IMG/VR virus record: IMGVR_UViG_3300010366_000012
Location: 11,012-75,011 of that record
DNA from: a virus
Taxonomy: Duplodnaviria; Caudoviricetes
DNA: 64,000 bases
Reading direction: 5' to 3' (one strand)
In this document: positions 55,178 through 64,000 of the stretch, in pieces
Position numbering within the stretch: position 1 is the stretch's first letter
Layout of the letters: every line of letters starts with the position of its first letter
Program-made: the position numbers and the translations under genes
The notes under the pieces: model-generated
Told to the model about the DNA's origin: nothing
The model's input: only the letters and a program-made list of their open reading frames with translations
The model's database searches: none

Positions 55178-56217
55178 CACTGGCCTGCCCTTCCGAGCTG
55201 TGCCTGGACCGCATCCAGGCCGCCCCTCGTGTACCGAGCGTATGGGTCGGCTCGGACAAACCGGTCGCCATCCTCCAGGGCTGCCGCCCATGCCGAGCCG
55301 TCATCCATCATGGGGCACAGCCCGCCCACCAGGGGGCAGGACCACCGGCAATCGTGCAAGATCGGCACCGGGCGGCAGATCCGCCGCTGCCAGTAGTTGA
55401 TTGCCTCGATGGTCCCGCCCTGCTGGTATGCCGCGCTCAGCTGCTGCCGTGCGCTCAGGATCTCGCTGGCTACCTGCTGGGTGCTGAGCAGGTGGCTGGC
55501 CAGCTGCTCGGCGGTGTACCGGAACGGGTGCCGGTCATAGTAGGGCGGCTTGGACTGCTTGGTCCGTTTGACCCGGCGCAGCGTGTTGACGATGCCCCCG
55601 TTGACCAGCGGCCGGTTCGACTCCAGCTGCGGCAGCTCCCCGGGCACCGGGATGCCGTAGTTGATTAGCCACTGGATCAGCGCATACGTTTTCATCTGCG
55701 GGTCCATTTCGATCACCTCGTGGCGCTCGAAGCTGTCCGCGGTCTTGTGGTCGAGGAAGCTGAACCAGCCCGTCTCGGTGTCCCAGGTGACCTGATCGAG
55801 CTTGCCGCGCAGGTACACGCCCTCGAAGCCGGGCAGCGGCACCGCGACGTCGGCCTCGGTGAGCACCACCTTCAGCGTGGCGTCCAGGCTCTTATCGCGC
55901 ACCTCGTCCAGGTAGCCAGCGACCATGATCTTCGCCAGCTCCCAGTCGCTGCGCAGCTCCTTCTCGAACTCCGGGTGCTCGGTGATCTCGGCCCGGTACA
56001 GCAGGTCGAGCACCAGGCCCGGGTCCAGGCCGTAGCCGTAGTGGCCTTCGAGCGCGGTATGCACCCGGATGCCGAGCTGCCGGTTGCCGTGCGGCGCTTC
56101 ATCGGCGGGCAGGAAGCACAGGAAGTGCTCCACGAACCACCGCCTGGGGCAGCGTTTCCACTGCTGCAGCTCGGTGTTGGAGAGCCCGATGGCTCCCTCA
56201 GGCAGGGATGCTGACAT
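55177..56217 (-). CDS. PD-(D/E)XK Cas4/RecB-like exonuclease
   Basis: S.TELQQWKRCPRRW, G..VH.ALE, GKLD, LDHKT, QMKTY, C.W.CP. Confidence 0.85.
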   Translation of the reverse strand: MSASLPEGAIGLSNTELQQWKRCPRRWFVEHFLCFLPADEAPHGNRQLGIRVHTALEGHYGYGLDPGLVLDLLYRAEITEHPEFEKELRSDWELAKIMVAGYLDEVRDKSLDATLKVVLTEADVAVPLPGFEGVYLRGKLDQVTWDTETGWFSFLDHKTADSFERHEVIEMDPQMKTYALIQWLINYGIPVPGELPQLESNRPLVNGGIVNTLRRVKRTKQSKPPYYDRHPFRYTAEQLASHLLSTQQVASEILSARQQLSAAYQQGGTIEAINYWQRRICRPVPILHDCRWSCPLVGGLCPMMDDGSAWAAALEDGDRFVRADPYARYTRGGLDAVQAQLGRAGQ

Positions 56218-58141
56218 TGCCTTCTCCTTCTCCGGCGATCTCTCCGGGCTGCACTGACATGCACCAGCGCAGCAGCTTCGCGTCCTTGACGACGCTCTCG
56301 TGCCGGGCCTCCTTGGTGAGCCCGAGCTGGTACAGCCGGACATCCACCGTGCCGGGGCTGATCACGTGGACCTGCCGCACGTTGTGGGTCTGCCCGAACC
56401 GGTCTGCGCGGCCGGTCATCTGCTCGCGCGCCACGAAGATCGGGTCCGGCTCCATCCAGTAGATGCCCTCGGCCGCCTGCAGGTCGATCGACTCCCCGCC
56501 CGCCCTGCTGATGAAGATCACCCGGGCCTGGCCGGACTGGAACGCCAGCGCCGAGGCGTCCTTGGCCGTGGTCGGCATGCCCCCGACGATCTTGACGTGG
56601 CTGATCTTCTCGGCGTCCAGCTTGCCCTCGGCCAGCTCGATCAGCGGCGGGCTGTTGGCTGCCACGATCCACTGCCCCGGGTTGTCACCGAGGAACTCCA
56701 GCAGGTCGTCTACCTTGTTGGAGGGCAGCACCCGGCGCACGTGCTCGGCGGTAAACCCGGAGGGATCTTCGCCATCCTCGACCGCGAGCATCGACCCGGC
56801 CAGCTGGCACTGCCGGGTGAAGGCCACGATGCCCGCCTCGGGCACCAGGGTGTCCACGCCGTAGTCGTCCAGCTGGGCGATCCCGATCTTGGTGATCGAG
56901 TCGTAGGCGCGCTGCTGGCGCGGGGTCAGCAGCGGGTAGCGGAACTCCGGCTCCAGCAGCACCGGCTGACCGGCGCGGGCGATCTCCTTGGGGATGCGCC
57001 GGAACAGCGGCCACATGGTGACCTCGAACGTCGAGCGGGTGTCTGGTCGCAGGTCGAGCACCACCCGGCCCTTGCCCGCGTAGGCGAAGTCCTGCAGCGC
57101 ATAGAAGTCGAGGTACTTGGACCGCACCGGCCAGGCCCGCGGGCTGATCGCATGCGCCACCGCCCACAGGTCAGCCACGCTGTTGACGGTGAGCGTGCCG
57201 GTCGCAGCGAACAGGTTCTCGCTGTGATGGGCCAGCCACCACAGCGCCCGGGTCAGCTTGGTGTTGGGCACAGACATCCGGTGAACCTCGTCCGCGATCA
57301 CCGTGCGCAGCCAGGTGCTCTCCCGCTCGCGCGGGCGGCCTTCCTCGGGAAAGTTGAACTCCTTGGCGCATTCCTCGCACGCGGCCGGGCTCTTGCCGGT
57401 CGAGCCGCCGTGGTCGTTGCACCGGACGAACGCCTCGCCCGGGTACCCGGCCAGCCTGGTGTGCAGCCGCAGGTTCGGCCAGGCGATGATCCCGACGTCC
57501 GCCTCGCCCAGCCGCAGCTGCTCGATGGCCTTGCGCCGCGCGCCCGCCGCGTGCATGATCACCTGGGTCCGCAGCTCGGGAGCCCACAGCTTCAGCTTGC
57601 GCTGCCAGGCCAGCGGCGCGGCGTCCGGGCAGATCACCAGGGCGGGGAAGCCCTCTTCCGCCTCGTGCAGCCACTGCAATGCCCGGATCAGCGGCGGGGT
57701 CTTGCCATTGCCGCGCTCGTCACCCAGGATGGCTCGCCGGTAGTCCAGCAGCCACTGCACCCCGCCGCGCTGCCAGCCGGTCAGCTCATACTGTGGCTGC
57801 CCGGGTGGCGGGGCGGGCATGCGGGCGTCCTTGTCGATCAGCCAGCCGCGCAGGTCGCCATCGGTGGCGTCCGGGGCGATCCGGGCGTCCAGCTGTCGCT
57901 GCACCTTGTGCCACTCGGCCTCGGCCCACTCCGCGAGCGAGGGCCAGATCTCGATGCCCTGCTGCGCCCAGACGCCGCGCATCATCGCATATCCCGGCCA
58001 GGTCAGCGGCATCCGCCAGATCTGATCCCCCGGGGTGTGCTTGCACCCGGCGAGCTGCTTGCACAGCCCGTACTCGGGCGGGCTGCACCCGATCGCCAGC
58101 ACCGGGGGATCGGTGCCCGGCTCAATCGACGCCCACGCCAT
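56198..58141 (-). CDS. SNF2-like (SF2) helicase
   Basis: LGDERGNGKT, VIADEVH, ATGT, GGESIDLQ, Q..GRADRFGQ. Confidence 0.9.
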   Translation of the reverse strand: MAWASIEPGTDPPVLAIGCSPPEYGLCKQLAGCKHTPGDQIWRMPLTWPGYAMMRGVWAQQGIEIWPSLAEWAEAEWHKVQRQLDARIAPDATDGDLRGWLIDKDARMPAPPPGQPQYELTGWQRGGVQWLLDYRRAILGDERGNGKTPPLIRALQWLHEAEEGFPALVICPDAAPLAWQRKLKLWAPELRTQVIMHAAGARRKAIEQLRLGEADVGIIAWPNLRLHTRLAGYPGEAFVRCNDHGGSTGKSPAACEECAKEFNFPEEGRPRERESTWLRTVIADEVHRMSVPNTKLTRALWWLAHHSENLFAATGTLTVNSVADLWAVAHAISPRAWPVRSKYLDFYALQDFAYAGKGRVVLDLRPDTRSTFEVTMWPLFRRIPKEIARAGQPVLLEPEFRYPLLTPRQQRAYDSITKIGIAQLDDYGVDTLVPEAGIVAFTRQCQLAGSMLAVEDGEDPSGFTAEHVRRVLPSNKVDDLLEFLGDNPGQWIVAANSPPLIELAEGKLDAEKISHVKIVGGMPTTAKDASALAFQSGQARVIFISRAGGESIDLQAAEGIYWMEPDPIFVAREQMTGRADRFGQTHNVRQVHVISPGTVDVRLYQLGLTKEARHESVVKDAKLLRWCMSVQPGEIAGEGEGNVSIPA

Positions 58142-58575
58142 CACGCACCTTCTTTCGCCGCCTTGAACTCGACTACGGGGGCTTCGGCGTGCCGCGGGCG
58201 CGCACCGGATGTCACCAGCATGGCCTGCCGCTTGGCCAGCTCGTCGGTGTACCAGCCCGGCTCGATGCCCATCCCCGGGGGTGCCAGGAACCGCGCCTCG
58301 TCGCCGCCAGGCCCGCCGCCGTACTGCGGCCGGATGCTGTAGTCGATGATGCCGCGGTTGTTCGCCCACCGCCTGGCCCACCGGCCGCAGCCCGTCTCGC
58401 AGTGCTCGACCACGGTGAACGTGCCATCGCCCTCGCGGAAGATGTCCACCGTCTTGGGCACCGCCTTGCCCGGGATCAGGGACGGCCACTTGTGCCGCTT
58501 GCGCCCCTTGCAGAGCACGACCGCATCGTCCAGCCCGTGGAGGTAGTTGCGCTGCCTGTGCGTCTTGCTAGTCAT
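58141..58575 (-). CDS. hypothetical protein
   Basis: C..H...C..C; overlap with helicase start. Confidence 0.6.
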   Translation of the reverse strand: MTSKTHRQRNYLHGLDDAVVLCKGRKRHKWPSLIPGKAVPKTVDIFREGDGTFTVVEHCETGCGRWARRWANNRGIIDYSIRPQYGGGPGGDEARFLAPPGMGIEPGWYTDELAKRQAMLVTSGARPRHAEAPVVEFKAAKEGA

Positions 58576-58600
58576 TGCCTTCGCCTTCGCCCTGTCCTGC

Positions 58601-59059
58601 CTAGAGGGTACCTGTTGGTTCCGACAGAACGGCCACACCGGCCGGGGGCAGGTTGCCCGACCGGATCAGATGGGCCGCCAGGTGCTGTGCTGCCGCTTGC
58701 GCGTCGTCCTTGCCCGGCACCCACCAGCCGAGGGCTTTCAGCACCTCAGGCGTGGCGGTGAGCCGCTCGCGCGGTCCCGGTTCGAGCAGCTGGCACCCGT
58801 TCTTCAGCGCCGCGCGCCGGGCCACTCCGCTCATTTCCAGCGCGAGGTGCGCGTGCGTCTGCGGCCTGCGGCGGTCGATCCGGTACTTCTCCAAGATCAT
58901 CAGCAGTGCCGGTCCCCACTGCTGGCAGAGGTGCTCGACATGATCACCGGCTTCGAGGAACTCGTACTCATCCGCGTAGAACGCCCGGCCCTGCTCCCAG
59001 CAGCAGGCCAGCCCGGTCATGCCACCGCTGTCGATGGCCAGCACGCATGGGGGCATCAT
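58601..59059 (-). CDS. RuvC-like Holliday junction resolvase
   Basis: VLAIDSGG.TG, LE, DDAQAA..H. Confidence 0.8.
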   Translation of the reverse strand: MMPPCVLAIDSGGMTGLACCWEQGRAFYADEYEFLEAGDHVEHLCQQWGPALLMILEKYRIDRRRPQTHAHLALEMSGVARRAALKNGCQLLEPGPRERLTATPEVLKALGWWVPGKDDAQAAAQHLAAHLIRSGNLPPAGVAVLSEPTGTL

Positions 59060-60837
59060 GTCTTGACCCACCTCCCGGGCAGGATCTCGCCGGACCAGGT
59101 GAGCGGCAGCCGGTAGTTTGACCGGTCAGTCAGCACCTCCTGGGCGGCGTGCAGCACGTCGCGTGCCAGGTGCTTCGGGCAGGCCAGCAGCAGCTCGTCA
59201 TGCACCGGCAGCCGGAGGAACTCACCGATCCCGGCCGCATCGCAGGCGATGGCCCCGCGTTTGAGGTTCTCCGCGGCGCTGGATTGGATCTCGTAGTCAA
59301 TCCCGGCGTACTCCCGGCCCCGGTCCACGAACAGCCGCCTGCCCATCAGCGAGTAGACCGCGGGCCTGCCCTTGCCGTACTTGATCTTCTTCACCAGCTT
59401 GTTCGAGCGCATGGCCAGGGTGTGGTAGCGCTGCTTGAACCCGCGGTAGATCGGCTCCAGCTGCTCGACCGACACGCCCGCGGTGACCGCGGCTGTCTCC
59501 ATGCCGGAGCCATAGACCGTGGCATAGGCCGTGTTCTTGGTGGTCGGGTAGCGCGGGTCGGACTTGGCCACCTCTTCGCGGTAGATCTCGCTGGCCAGGT
59601 TGACGAAGAATGACCGCCCGGTGGCATCGCACATGGCGAAATCGGCTATCAGCTGCGCGTCCCCGCTGATGTGCGCGGCCAGCCGCATTTCGATCTGGTC
59701 GGCGTCGATGGTGATCAGCGCCTCATCCTCGCCGGGCACGTAGCTGCCGCGGACCGCTTCCACGATCCGGTCGAACTGGTGCATCGGGGGATCGGTGACC
59801 GAGCTGCGGCTGGTGCGCTGCGCGCCGATGGTGTGGATCGAGTAGTGGATCACATCGTCGGCCCCGGCCATCCGCAGGAACTTCTCCAGGTACTTGCCGA
59901 CAATGCCCTGGCCCTTTTTGGCATCGCGGATGGCAGCCAGCAATGGCGCGGCATGCGGGTAGTGCGCCTGGTATTCCAGCAGCACGTCCTTAGACACCTG
60001 CGGCATGCCCGTGCCGGTGCGGTAGAGGATTGGGACCCCGGCCGCTTCAAGAGCCCGGCCGACCTGCTCATTGGAATCGACCGAATTGATGCCCCACTCG
60101 CCGCGCAGCCAGAACATGGCGCGCTCGGTGAATGCGGTGATCTTGTCAATCCACTCGTGGATATAGGGCCGGTCGATGCGCATGCCCGCATTCATCATCG
60201 ACGCGCATATCGCGGCGTACCGCAATTCCATGTCGTAGACGTTGATGTACTGCCTGGCCTCACCCCAGTGCTTGTCAATCAGCCAGCTGGTCAGCACCGG
60301 GTCGGCTGCGCCATAGCGCCAGTATTCGGGCAGGCTGTCCGGCACCGTGGCCCAAGTCCATTTCTGGGCCTTCATGGCCTCTTTCAGCTCGCGCTCCCAC
60401 GCCGCGGCGGTCGGGTCAACATCCCGGCTCGCCCGCGTTTTCAGGTCGAGCGGGGCCGCGCTATCGACCAGGTGGCTGATCAGCTGGGCGTCATCGAGCC
60501 GGGAGAAGTCCAGCTGCAGCCCGCCCTGGTGATGGATCACCCGCTGGTCATAGTCCATGTTGAACATGCCCAGCCGCCCCGGCCACTTATCCAGCGCTTC
60601 GAGCGCGGGGCCGAACCACTGCGGGCCGAATGCCCAGCCATGCCGCTTGTCACCAAGCTGGATCATGCGCAGCCGGTCTTTGTAAGGCGACAAGCCGCTG
60701 CTCTCGGTGTCGCAGCAGACCATGCCGTCATGCCGCTCGCCCAGCCAGCGCCAGAACTCGCCCAGCGTCTGCATGTCTGATACCCGGTGCAGTCCTACGC
60801 TGTCGAGCACGCCGCCCCTCGGCAGCACTGCTGTCAT
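59056..60837 (-). CDS. polA: family A DNA polymerase with 3'-5' exonuclease
   Basis: CDTESSG (ExoI), DADQIEMR (motif A), KNTAYATVYG (motif B), VHDEL (motif C); RBS AGGGAG before ATG 60837. Confidence 0.95.
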   Translation of the reverse strand: MTAVLPRGGVLDSVGLHRVSDMQTLGEFWRWLGERHDGMVCCDTESSGLSPYKDRLRMIQLGDKRHGWAFGPQWFGPALEALDKWPGRLGMFNMDYDQRVIHHQGGLQLDFSRLDDAQLISHLVDSAAPLDLKTRASRDVDPTAAAWERELKEAMKAQKWTWATVPDSLPEYWRYGAADPVLTSWLIDKHWGEARQYINVYDMELRYAAICASMMNAGMRIDRPYIHEWIDKITAFTERAMFWLRGEWGINSVDSNEQVGRALEAAGVPILYRTGTGMPQVSKDVLLEYQAHYPHAAPLLAAIRDAKKGQGIVGKYLEKFLRMAGADDVIHYSIHTIGAQRTSRSSVTDPPMHQFDRIVEAVRGSYVPGEDEALITIDADQIEMRLAAHISGDAQLIADFAMCDATGRSFFVNLASEIYREEVAKSDPRYPTTKNTAYATVYGSGMETAAVTAGVSVEQLEPIYRGFKQRYHTLAMRSNKLVKKIKYGKGRPAVYSLMGRRLFVDRGREYAGIDYEIQSSAAENLKRGAIACDAAGIGEFLRLPVHDELLLACPKHLARDVLHAAQEVLTDRSNYRLPLTWSGEILPGRWVKT

Positions 60838-60871
60838 TTCCCGTCTCCCTAAATTGCCTGCTCCATCATCC

Positions 60872-63800
60872 ATGCCTGCCATGCCATCCCCAGCCATGCC
60901 GGGCCGAGCCAAACCAATCCGCTGCGGTCCTGGCCTCGCCTTGCCCCTCCCCGCCTGCCACGTCTGACGCCGATGGTAACCGAGAGCCACGACAAGCCGC
61001 GCCTGCCCCGCCAAACCGGTCCCGCCCAGGCCCCGACGCACCTAGCCCCGCCTGCCATGCCATGCCTACCCGAGCCCTGCCGAGCCCTCGCGCACCTAGC
61101 CCTGTCCGTCCTGCCGAGCCCTGGCCAGCGATGCCCAGCCGTGCCACGGCCACGCCATGCCGATCCTGCCTGCCCTCGCCTAGCCCCGGCCATCCTGTCC
61201 CGGTCCCGCCATGCCTGCCGGGCCTTGCCGAGCCATGACCAGCAACGCCCTGCCATGCCCAGCCTGCCCTGCCTAGCCGCGCCGTGCCGTGACCGGCCAA
61301 CCCTAGCCTGTCCTGGCATGCCGAGCCGAGCCACGGCTAGCCGCGCCCGTCCTGCCTTACCGGGCCTTGCCGGTGCCTGCCCCGCCAGGCCGCAGCTCGC
61401 CGTGCCTGCCTGGCCGAGCCACACCATGGCCGTCCTAGCCGCGCCACTGCTAGCCAACCCACGCCTGCCGAGCCGTGCCCTGCCTGACCTTGCCCCGCCA
61501 CGACGGTGCGGGCCGGGCCAAGCCACGCCGAGCCTGCCACAGCTCGCCTGGCCATGCCGGTGCGCGCCTGGCCATGCCGTGACCAGCCTCGCCTGCCTGG
61601 CCAAGCCCAGCCCTGACTCGCCCTGCAGCTCCCTGGCTGCCGAGCCGGGACTTGCCTCCCCGCGCCCAGCCACAGGCCGCCCCGCCTCGCCACGCCTGCC
61701 TAGCCATGCCGGACCCAGGCCCCCACGCCCAGGCTAGCCTGCCGTGCCGAGCCACGCCGTCCCGCGCCAACCCACAGCCTGCCTTGCCCCGCCAATCCTG
61801 GCGTGCCGAGCCACGCCGGGCCGGTCCATCGCCTGCCCTGCCGGTCCTGCCTCGCCATGCCAACTCGCGCCGCGGCACGCCTCGCCTGGCCCGGACAGCC
61901 CTAGCCTGGCCGCTCCTGGCGTGCCACGCCATGGCTGTCCCAGCGGTGCCATGACCTGCCGAGCCTGCCTCGCCTACCCGCAGCCCGCCAAGCCGACGCT
62001 CGCCATGCCTCACCTGCCGAGCCCCGCCCTGCCTGGCCATCGCGCGCCAAGCGCTGCCGAGCCAAGCCGACCCGGGCCACGCCCCGCCTGCCCTGCCAGA
62101 GCGCGCCGGAGCCTGCCACGGCACACCGGGCCATGCCTGCCCTGCCCAGACTCGCCTCAGCCTGCCCAGAGCTGCCCTTCCGGTGCCTGCCCTGCCTGCC
62201 TAGCCTTGCCTTGCCATCGCATGACTTGCCACGCCAATCCTGGCGGGCCATGCCCGGCCGGTGCGACCCGGGCCAAGCCACGGCCATCCCTGCCATGGCT
62301 GCCCGGCCACGCCACTGCTTGGCTTACCGGTCCTTGGCAGTCCTCGCCCGCCCTGGCCACGACTGCCCTGCCGCGCCTTGCCTGGCTTGCCTTGCCATGG
62401 CATCGCAAACCGAGCCTCGCCTCAGCACCCCGCGCCAGTCCTGCCCAGCCCCGCCAGAGCGGGCCAATGTCTGCCTAGCCCCGCCACGCCTGCCGGGCCT
62501 TGCCATGGCATGGCTCGCCAAGCCGCGCCGGGCCATTGCCCGCCTGCCTCGCCCCGCCTCAGCGGGCCTTGCCGTGGCCAGCCAAACCAAGCCTGGCGGG
62601 CCATGCCGCGCCGTGCCAAGCCGAGACTTGCCCACCCGGGCCGAGCCCTGCCTTGCCTGCCATGCCGAGCCCTGCCGAGCCTAACCCTGCCGTGCGGTGC
62701 CGAGCCAAGCCAATCCTGCCCGGCCAGTCCCTGCCAGTCCTGTCCACGCCTAAGCCCACCTAGCCAGGCCGACCTGCCGATGCGCTGCTTGCCTTAGCCC
62801 GCCGAGCCAATCCTGGCACGCCGAGCCCTGCCGTCCCGAGCCGTGCCTACCCTAGCCCTGCCGAGTCGCGCCTGCCCCGCCTGGCCATGCCTTAGCTATC
62901 CTCGCCACGCCGCTCCCCCGCGGGCCATGCCTTGCCTGCCTTGCCGAGCCTGTCCCAGCCAGGACCGGCCAAGCCACGCGCTGGCGTGCCCCGCCTTGCC
63001 TGCCAAACCTAGCCCCGCCGAGCCGCCGCCGAGCCAACGCCCGCCAGTGCCTTCCGCGCCTCGCCTGCCATGCCTCGGCCGCCCTTACCACGGCTCGCCA
63101 TGCCTTCGCACGCCTGCCCTGGCCTGCCTTGCCACTCCGCGCCCTGCGAAAGCGGGCCTAGCCGATCCTGCCCTGGCGGGCCGGGCCTTGCCGAGCCTCG
63201 CCCGCGCACGCCGTGCCCAGCCTGCCCTGCCCTTGCATACCGGGCCGAGCCCCTGCGGACCCATCCATGCCGACCCCCGCCTTGGCACTCCCCGCCTGCC
63301 AGTCCCCGCCCCGGCGCACCTCGCCATGGCGCACCACGACTAACCCACCCGAGCCCTGCCTGCCGCGCCCGTCCTGGCGTGCCACCCCAAGCCTGGACCG
63401 ACCCGACCCGTCCCATCCCCGCCGACCCTTGGCCCGCCGCTCCCCGCCTGCCGTAGCTTGCCGAGCCTCGCCTACCCAAGCCCCGCCGACCCATACCATG
63501 CCTGCCCGGACACGCCCATGCGCACCGAGCCTTGCCAACACGGGCCGCGCCAAGCCAACGATCGCCAAGCCCTGCCTGCCTCGCCATAGCGAACCTCTGC
63601 TGGCCGCGCCTCGCCCAGCCAAGCCTGCCACGCCAAGCCTCGCACCAGCTCGCCTCGCCTCACCCGGCCCGTCCTGCCGCGCCAGCCCACGCCGAGCCCG
63701 GCCATCGCAAGCCATGGCGATCCTGCCGGGCCAGTGCCGCGCGGGCCTCGCCCCGCCGATCCCTGCCTGGCTCGCCGTGCCTAGCGTTAGCTCGCCCCGC

Positions 63801-64000
63801 CGTCGCGCGCCGCGCCATGCCCGGCCTGCCCGTCCCGGCCACGCCGGTCCCTTGCACACCGCCGCAAGCCCAGCCGTAACAAGCCCACCCATGCCCTGCC
63901 TGCCACGCGCCGCCTCGACTAACCTCGCCAGGCCCCGCCTTGGCGCACAGAGCCTGGCCATTCCTGCCTTGACGGTCCCTGCCGAGCCCTCGCTGGCCGA
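60872..64000 (-). repeat. array of ~55 units of (GGY-NN)n pentamers separated by GGCA tetramers; candidate guide-RNA array (VIPR-like), truncated at the window edge
   Basis: + strand parses as [NN-GCC/ACC]x8-15 then TGCC/TGGC; all 16 NN dinucleotides are used; several units decode to known protein motifs. Confidence 0.9.

Follow-up and report, generated by a model that had tools for sequence, protein, structure and literature searches.

A guide in a phage VIPR array that matches a methylase gene at the head of a Streptomyces type I restriction-modification cluster

A staggered array at the end of a phage record

The stretch of DNA analysed here (64,000 nucleotides, hereafter the window) makes up the final 64 kb of a Caudoviricetes record 75,011 bp in length (IMG/VR record IMGVR_UViG_3300010366_000012), and the end of that record falls inside an array of pentanucleotide repeats of which more than 3.1 kb lie within the window. 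The array is of a known kind, VIPR, described in two 2026 preprints as consisting of a small RAMP protein (Vipr) and vrRNAs of 9-16 GGY-NN repeats (bioRxiv 10.64898/2026.04.26.720920 and 10.64898/2026.04.26.720927). In these systems pairing with double-stranded DNA is made by the NN dinucleotides and leaves out each third base, usually the wobble position of a codon, and binding represses transcription on either strand without the need for a protospacer-adjacent motif (10.64898/2026.04.26.720920,.720927). The present study concerns one guide of the array, at 63379-63448, whose dinucleotides match exactly a gene for an N-6 DNA methylase in Streptomyces sp. SID9727 that stands at the head of an hsdM-hsdS-hsdR cluster, and which we consider likely to be a phage VIPR guide directed against that gene and used in RNA-guided counter-defence. 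The features on which this proposal is built are as follows.

60872..64000, minus strand: the part of a staggered VIPR vrRNA array that lies within the window, with 52 runs of 7 or more pentamers, running off the contig end (autocorrelation, phase and parse)
63379..63448, minus strand: guide of 14 GGY-NN units, one vrRNA (parse, and exact 28/28 gapped match in Streptomyces sp. SID9727)
63375..63378, minus strand: phase-breaking tetramer, TGGC on the plus and GCCA on the minus strand; 3' boundary of the vrRNA (dynamic-programming parse)
63449..63452, minus strand: phase-breaking tetramer, TGCC on the plus and GGCA on the minus strand; 5' boundary of the vrRNA (dynamic-programming parse)

The lag-5 autocorrelation is about 0.5 in the array against 0.27 in the rest of the window, and the phase of the GCC trinucleotide slips by 1 base every ~54 nt, a GGCA/GCCA tetramer standing between successive runs. 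Dynamic-programming parsing of 60841-64000 resolved 52 runs of 7-15 pentamers split by tetramers TGCC or TGGC. Of the 543 units in the array, 60% read GCC and 78% read NCC in the constant part, with a mean of 65% canonical GGY, and all 16 possible NN dinucleotides are used. Successive guides adjoin one another with no tail and a shift of one base, which is the arrangement that defines the staggered subtype, one of the VIPR architectures listed in the legend to fig. S18 of the first preprint, where a 1-nt overlap is given (10.64898/2026.04.26.720920). No Rfam family matched 56000-64000 at gathering thresholds.

The guide at 63379-63448 consists of 14 pentamers, NN-GCC on the plus strand and GGY-NN on the minus strand. 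Read directly from the plus strand it is GTgcc ACccc AAgcc TGgac CGacc CGacc CGtcc CAtcc CCgcc GAccc TTggc CCgcc GCtcc CCgcc, giving the NN series (5'-3') GT AC AA TG CG CG CG CA CC GA TT CC GC CC; both the 14 dinucleotides and the register agree with those given in a preliminary description of this DNA. Its constant part, on the minus strand, keeps GG in 12 of the 14 units and the canonical GGY in 7.

An exact, wobble-aligned match in a Streptomyces methylase gene

The preliminary description had decoded the guide into a peptide and proposed a gapped-pattern search, which gave the following result. By the rule of a 1-nt skip, the guide specifies 28 bases. Searched against prokaryote genomes at one per species (596 Gb in all), the pattern matched exactly (28/28) once, in Streptomyces sp. 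SID9727, against ~9e-5 such matches expected by chance from base composition over the whole search. The match, a site of 41 bp (L001:7143-7183), lies in frame in an open reading frame (ORF) of 692 codons, whose codons 23-36 encode the decoded peptide literally (VTNWRRRHPDFPAP), and all 14 skipped bases are third codon positions of that ORF. It ends exactly at the tetramers 63375-63378 and 63449-63452, with no extension past either. Among 401 Streptomyces genomes, a site with at most 3 mismatches was found in 86, compared with none of 401 for the reversed-pattern control; one genome had 0 mismatches, nine had 1 and five had 2. The preprint's criterion of at least 80% matching NN bases is thus exceeded by 28/28 in SID9727 and by 27/28 in nine further genomes of the 401, a count that partly depends on one unpublished genome (G131). 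Natural variants of the site with 1, 2 and 4 mismatches encode VSNW..HPDFPAP, ..HADFPAP and ..HADFPKP. The motif is present in 0-3 copies per genome. The 75-kb phage record holds no self-target, its best site (18/28) being at background level, and no pentamer-coded copy of the same motif was found in other IMG/VR arrays, the best among 120 reaching 20/28.

The product of the target gene (692 aa) combines a helix-turn-helix (HTH)-like N-terminus, an N-6 methylase domain (N6_Mtase, E 4.8e-26; PADLOC MTase_I, E 8.8e-123) and a C-terminal specificity domain. The preliminary label of HsdM-like N-6 methylase stands only in this broad sense. As a canonical HsdM (TIGR00497) the protein scored 33.8 bits against a cut-off of 242.75 and it has no HsdM_N domain, so that by its domain content it is HsdM-like but not HsdM, the true hsdM being the next gene. 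The label of an N-terminal HTH likewise holds with a reservation: HTH_17 (PF12728) matches weakly (E 3.7e-4; 21.1 bits, under the curated cut-off of 27), and a profile of the N-terminal 61 residues returned from the PDB, also with weak scores, the MerR-type 2jml_A (E 0.005) and AlpA 8c3t_A (E 0.06). Precomputed PF12728 matches are recorded on many homologues, which are named 'N-6 DNA methylase' in their sources, some of them carrying the name 'AlpA' or the PF12728 annotation. We note that the database protein for the SID9727 methylase (P0001) is given as 543 aa from an internal Met start and is therefore devoid of the HTH and of the guide target site. The ORF (L005:10078-12156) is open for 692 codons, and full-length homologues of 694 aa, 81% identical, cover all of it.

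Because retrieval with the guide pattern would make the footprint look conserved by construction, homologues were retrieved with residues 90-692 alone, that is, without the guide footprint. At least 4,508 protein clusters were found at E <= 1e-20, in Streptomyces, Nocardiopsis, Micromonospora, Embleya and other genera. Among the best 120 homologues, 114 carry V(S/T)NWRRRHxDFPxP at about residue 23, which bears out the consensus AAVSNWRRRH.DFP.P given in the preliminary description. Over the same 120, conservation reaches 92% or more, in agreement with the guide, at 11 of the 14 positions that it covers; at the three variable ones (S/T; A/P/G/D; A/K/R/Q) the guide takes the SID9727 values. If their codons were the most favourable ones, 106 of these 114 homologues would come within the 80% criterion. 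The W-R-R-R-H-x-D-F-P motif is not confined to methylases, being present as well in other Streptomyces proteins, at loci L148 (1 mismatch), L152 (2), and L009 and L015 (3); that at L015 has 498 aa and the motif at residue 264, and that at L009 is a stretch of 557 aa without a Pfam match whose ORF runs off the locus.

The restriction-modification neighbourhood predicted in the preliminary description was found both in SID9727 and in most of the other loci examined. In SID9727, hsdM, hsdS and hsdR lie directly downstream of the methylase gene on the same strand: the canonical hsdM starts 90 bases downstream, with no terminator-like site in between, and is followed by hsdS, hsdR and a Ser/Thr kinase gene, the hsdM/hsdS and hsdS/hsdR ORF ends overlapping by four bases each. 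The predicted products carry HsdM_N and N6_Mtase, Specificity_I (E 6e-61), and HSDR_N, ResIII and T1R_D3 domains, respectively. With hsdM, hsdS and hsdR adjacent, the cluster is, as judged from these domains, a type I restriction-modification system, and the methylase and hsdMSR together may represent a two-methylase variant of it. The order HTH-methylase, hsdM, hsdS, hsdR recurs in 7 of the 8 one-mismatch loci examined, with the kinase gene also present in 4 of the 7. Among the Streptomyces loci compared (L005:6000-20000 and L143-L150) the conserved order is a fusion of HTH, N6-methylase and specificity domains, hsdM, hsdS, hsdR and a Ser/Thr kinase with TPR repeats. The methylase gene of SID9727 is preceded by a ParB-like gene, an AIPR/AbiU-like gene and a PIN gene; AIPR/AbiU-like and ParB-like genes also precede the cluster in two close relatives (L143 and L144). 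As a candidate MADS system the cluster fared poorly, PADLOC mad2, mad5 and mad6 being secondary matches and the type I models far better, with no search aimed at the OLD-like MAD3-MAD4 module (PMC13662399).

Vipr-like genes, variant arrays and other guides

A search of IMG/VR with a staggered pattern (GGCNN x4, GGCA, GGCNN x4) found similar arrays in at least 120 contigs (L018-L137). Clustering with phmmer of the ORFs near 80 of these at least 120 arrays yielded two protein families, A (~215 aa; 61 of the 80 loci) and B (~165 aa; 47 of the 80), the usual order on the GGC strand being family A, family B, array. The AlphaFold model of family A (pLDDT 87) matched, in Foldseek, Csm3/Cas7 subunits of type III and type VII CRISPR complexes (best E 1.4e-5; 53 matches at E <= 1e-3), and its consensus has a glycine-rich loop at the end. 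Family B gave no significant match in the fold search, where weak winged-helix rows appeared at E > 0.5, nor any in the PDB, and Pfam matched nothing on members of either family.

Given the conserved A-B-array layout, vipr and vap genes would be expected past the contig end of the phage record, and this was borne out in two metagenome contigs, L153 and L154, that share a 56-nt piece of the array end. The first 97 nt of L153 are identical (100%) to window 63904-64000, and L154:1-3560 aligns with window 60496-64000 at 95.6-98.5% identity over ~3.5 kb. In both contigs the array runs ~830 nt past the window end, giving ~3.9 kb and more than 60 guides in this phage lineage, the longest array seen (~0.1-2 kb among the 80 loci measured). 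Directly upstream of it, on the minus strand, lies one gene each of family B (E 4.9e-37) and of family A (229 aa, E 1.6e-64), the latter at L154:4913-5599. A promoter-like site (TTGACG-18-TAGATT, L154:5694-5665) lies upstream of the two genes, and no terminator-like site was seen between them and the array. As reconstructed from these overlapping contigs, the layout in the phage lineage is thus a vipr-like gene, a vap-like gene, the ~3.9 kb array and a DNA polymerase gene. These additional features, together with a second guide considered below, are:

L153:995-2136 and L154:4458-5599, minus strand: Vipr-like (229 aa) and vap-like (149 aa) genes (matches to hidden Markov models, HMMs, of families A and B)
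61470..61534, minus strand: second guide, with a 24/26 match inside the DISARM gene drmA of the SID9727 genome (gapped match and PADLOC)
59056..60837, minus strand: gene for a family A DNA polymerase, immediately downstream of the array; context, outside the system (gene call)

The relatives found for this DNA polymerase are just 33-44% identical (~33% for known actinophages), and the array is absent from both of its viral-contig relatives. A near-identity DNA search with 20-24 kb of the window returned no match in phage and plasmid collections.

Comparison of the window with L154 shows how the array varies. Across all guides, 31 NN and 41 constant-part changes were counted, with no departure from neutrality. 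Two guides, 61539-61593 and 62662-62716, appear to be replaced wholesale, and indels are of 5-25 nt in multiples of five. The 50 guides kept in both variants show 4 NN against 28 constant changes (binomial p 7e-4 relative to a 2:3 expectation), a split that follows post hoc exclusion of the two replaced guides. In the guide at 63379-63448, 0 of 28 NN bases and 2 constant bases differ. This pattern fits selection on the NN code combined with a cassette-like turnover of whole guides.

The guide at 61470-61534 decodes to D-V-L-W-F-P-T-G-G-G-K-T-E and its site lies at helicase motif I of drmA (L142:3-3005, minus strand; PADLOC DrmA, E 2e-218); between the two variants it shows 0 NN and 9 constant changes. 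When the other 51 guides were compared with the 20-kb target island, none rose above shuffled controls, and only the guide at 63379-63448 matched. The exact patterns of two other guides had no match in viral contigs.

Proposed action, alternatives and comparison with known systems

Taken together, the anatomy of the array, the vipr-like and vap-like genes in overlapping contigs, the exact wobble-aligned match, the family and neighbourhood of the target and the conservation of the NN bases between variants argue that a VIPR guide carried by this phage is directed at the HTH-methylase gene heading the hsdMSR cluster, and we favour this as the likely explanation. By analogy with the published systems, minus-strand transcription, probably together with vipr and vap, followed by processing would produce a vrRNA of 14 GGY-NN repeats, along which Vipr protomers would assemble, one per repeat, hiding the GGY. 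The 14 NN would then base-pair with the methylase gene's coding strand from nt +67 to +107 (codons 23-36, encoding the putative recognition-helix motif VTNWRRRHPDFPAP), and the filament so formed would stand in the way of RNA polymerase close to the beginning of a same-strand cluster comprising the methylase, hsdM, hsdS, hsdR and often the Ser/Thr kinase, with a predicted polar effect on hsdMSR to the benefit of the phage. Because every skip falls on a wobble position, synonymous changes could not free the target, and 11 of the 14 target codons are nearly invariant in the methylase family.

Several observations weigh against this proposal. Only 7 of the 14 constant trinucleotides of the guide are canonical GGY, and the published SUSP1 Vipr excludes purines at the Y position. 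Exact targets are rare, with one species representative and none in metagenome or viral contigs. No vipr gene is present in the 75-kb record, where HMMs of families A and B were run against all ORFs (E > 0.1 for family A), and the link to vipr depends on overlapping metagenome contigs of which L153 shares just 97 nt with the window. Six other long guides had no match at <=2-3 mismatches in the SID9727 genome, so that the array is not focused on the methylase locus, and the three genomes with the best targets yielded no related prophage. Foremost among these difficulties, and the weakest link of the proposal, is the benefit to a lytic infection, as silencing would leave the restriction enzyme present at DNA entry; the benefit would make more sense if the phage were temperate or plasmid-like in lifestyle, if expression of the cluster were induced, or if the effect were on later rounds of infection.

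Of the alternatives, the one that survives best, although we think it unlikely, is that the guide is real but serves a conflict between mobile elements, the methylase-hsdMSR-kinase island being itself a mobile or recently acquired rival. The published natural targets of VIPR are satellites, prophages and other VIPR loci, besides host repeats. The island genes have a GC content at third codon positions of 0.81-0.85, below the 0.92-0.98 of the flanks, so that the island may have been acquired horizontally; a PIN toxin gene and an AIPR/AbiU-like gene adjoin it; and the few matches in the plasmid collection, four weak protein matches, are all to records of megaplasmid size. No integrase or phage genes were seen, however, among the ORFs examined around the island, the relaxed motif pattern had no match in IMG/VR, and a search of 50,697 phage genomes gave no match to the target protein, whose very large family is borne on the chromosomes of many actinomycete genera. 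We read the target cluster as a putative chromosomal defence island. In practice this alternative differs little from the counter-defence proposal, since the cluster is a restriction system either way.

Slightly less credible again is that the guide is a decaying or idle relic, formerly matched to the gene but no longer loading Vipr or acting. That half of its constant trinucleotides are non-canonical, that the density of GCC dips at 63200-63450 and that exact targets are so rare would all be suggestive of decay. Decay is hard to reconcile with the 28 of 28 NN bases that are identical in L154 while 2 constant bases have changed, with the 4 NN against 28 constant changes in the 50 retained guides (p 7e-4, subject to the post hoc exclusion noted above), or with the GG retained in 12 of 14 units, the more so as the VIPR preprint describes internal degeneracy of vrRNAs as frequent. 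It is very improbable that the guide acts as a decoy or sink parking Vipr complexes on host DNA, in the manner of the decoy vrRNAs against host repeats and the satellite solo vrRNAs against REP elements that have been described (10.64898/2026.10.15.759431): the motif is present in 0-3 copies per genome rather than hundreds, and the guide belongs to the large array of the phage itself, with vipr adjoining. A chance resemblance within a degenerate pentanucleotide satellite, a concern because matching a decoded peptide to a familiar motif invites over-reading, we regard as practically negligible and as refuted as far as these searches allow, with ~1e-4 exact matches expected and one found, in frame, wobble-aligned and ending at the tetramers, and with sites in 86 of 401 genomes against 0 of 401 for the reversed control.

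Returning to the counter-defence proposal, what is reported here is a well-supported single guide-target pair in a system of known kind. The 2026 descriptions of VIPR present it as a weapon used between viruses and satellites, and the main texts of the three preprints name neither restriction-modification nor DISARM genes as targets. An exact methylase guide and a near-exact drmA guide matching the same bacterium would extend VIPR to host immunity genes and, if the proposal is correct, would represent a new class of anti-defence mechanism. More tentatively, and with our own judgement leaning slightly against it, large phage VIPR arrays might be RNA-guided counter-defence arsenals in which individual guides stay matched to those codons of host immunity genes, such as the methylase and drmA, that are most conserved; one small RAMP protein could then silence, at the transcriptional level, many defence systems across many host species. 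The guide-target pair itself would also provide a means of reading, from a guide array, the host defences that a phage expects and possibly the range of its hosts. With the guide, the target site and a candidate Vipr gene all defined, the case lends itself to a direct test.

In its GGY-NN pentamers, its 14 repeats (within the 9-16 described), its abutting, tailless guides with a one-base offset, the predicted RAMP-fold and accessory genes beside the array in the overlapping contigs, its carriage by a phage, its wobble-aligned skips and its lack of a self-target, the system resembles staggered VIPR as far as that architecture is set out in the figure legend cited above. It differs from it in that the best-matching targets are cellular defence genes, and from the 80 other array loci in the size of its array. 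A close parallel is vrRNA4 of SUSP1, which addresses the active site of a satellite recombinase (10.64898/2026.10.15.759431) and likewise combines near-invariant codons with wobble-aligned skips, so that in both cases escape requires a non-synonymous change in a conserved motif. The target of SUSP1 vrRNA4 is an essential gene of a rival satellite and has been tested at the bench (10.64898/2026.10.15.759431), whereas the predicted target considered here encodes a putative DNA-binding helix of a restriction-modification-associated methylase on a bacterial chromosome. Such a guide would also have functional counterparts outside VIPR. Ocr and ArdA are protein anti-restriction factors that inhibit the enzyme directly, and phage ICP1 carries a full CRISPR-Cas system against the host PLE island, whose DNA it destroys. 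By analogy, the array described here would be a further phage-borne tool neutralising a host defence, sharing its RNA guidance with ICP1 and differing from all three in its predicted action, namely binding and transcriptional block by a single small RAMP protein.

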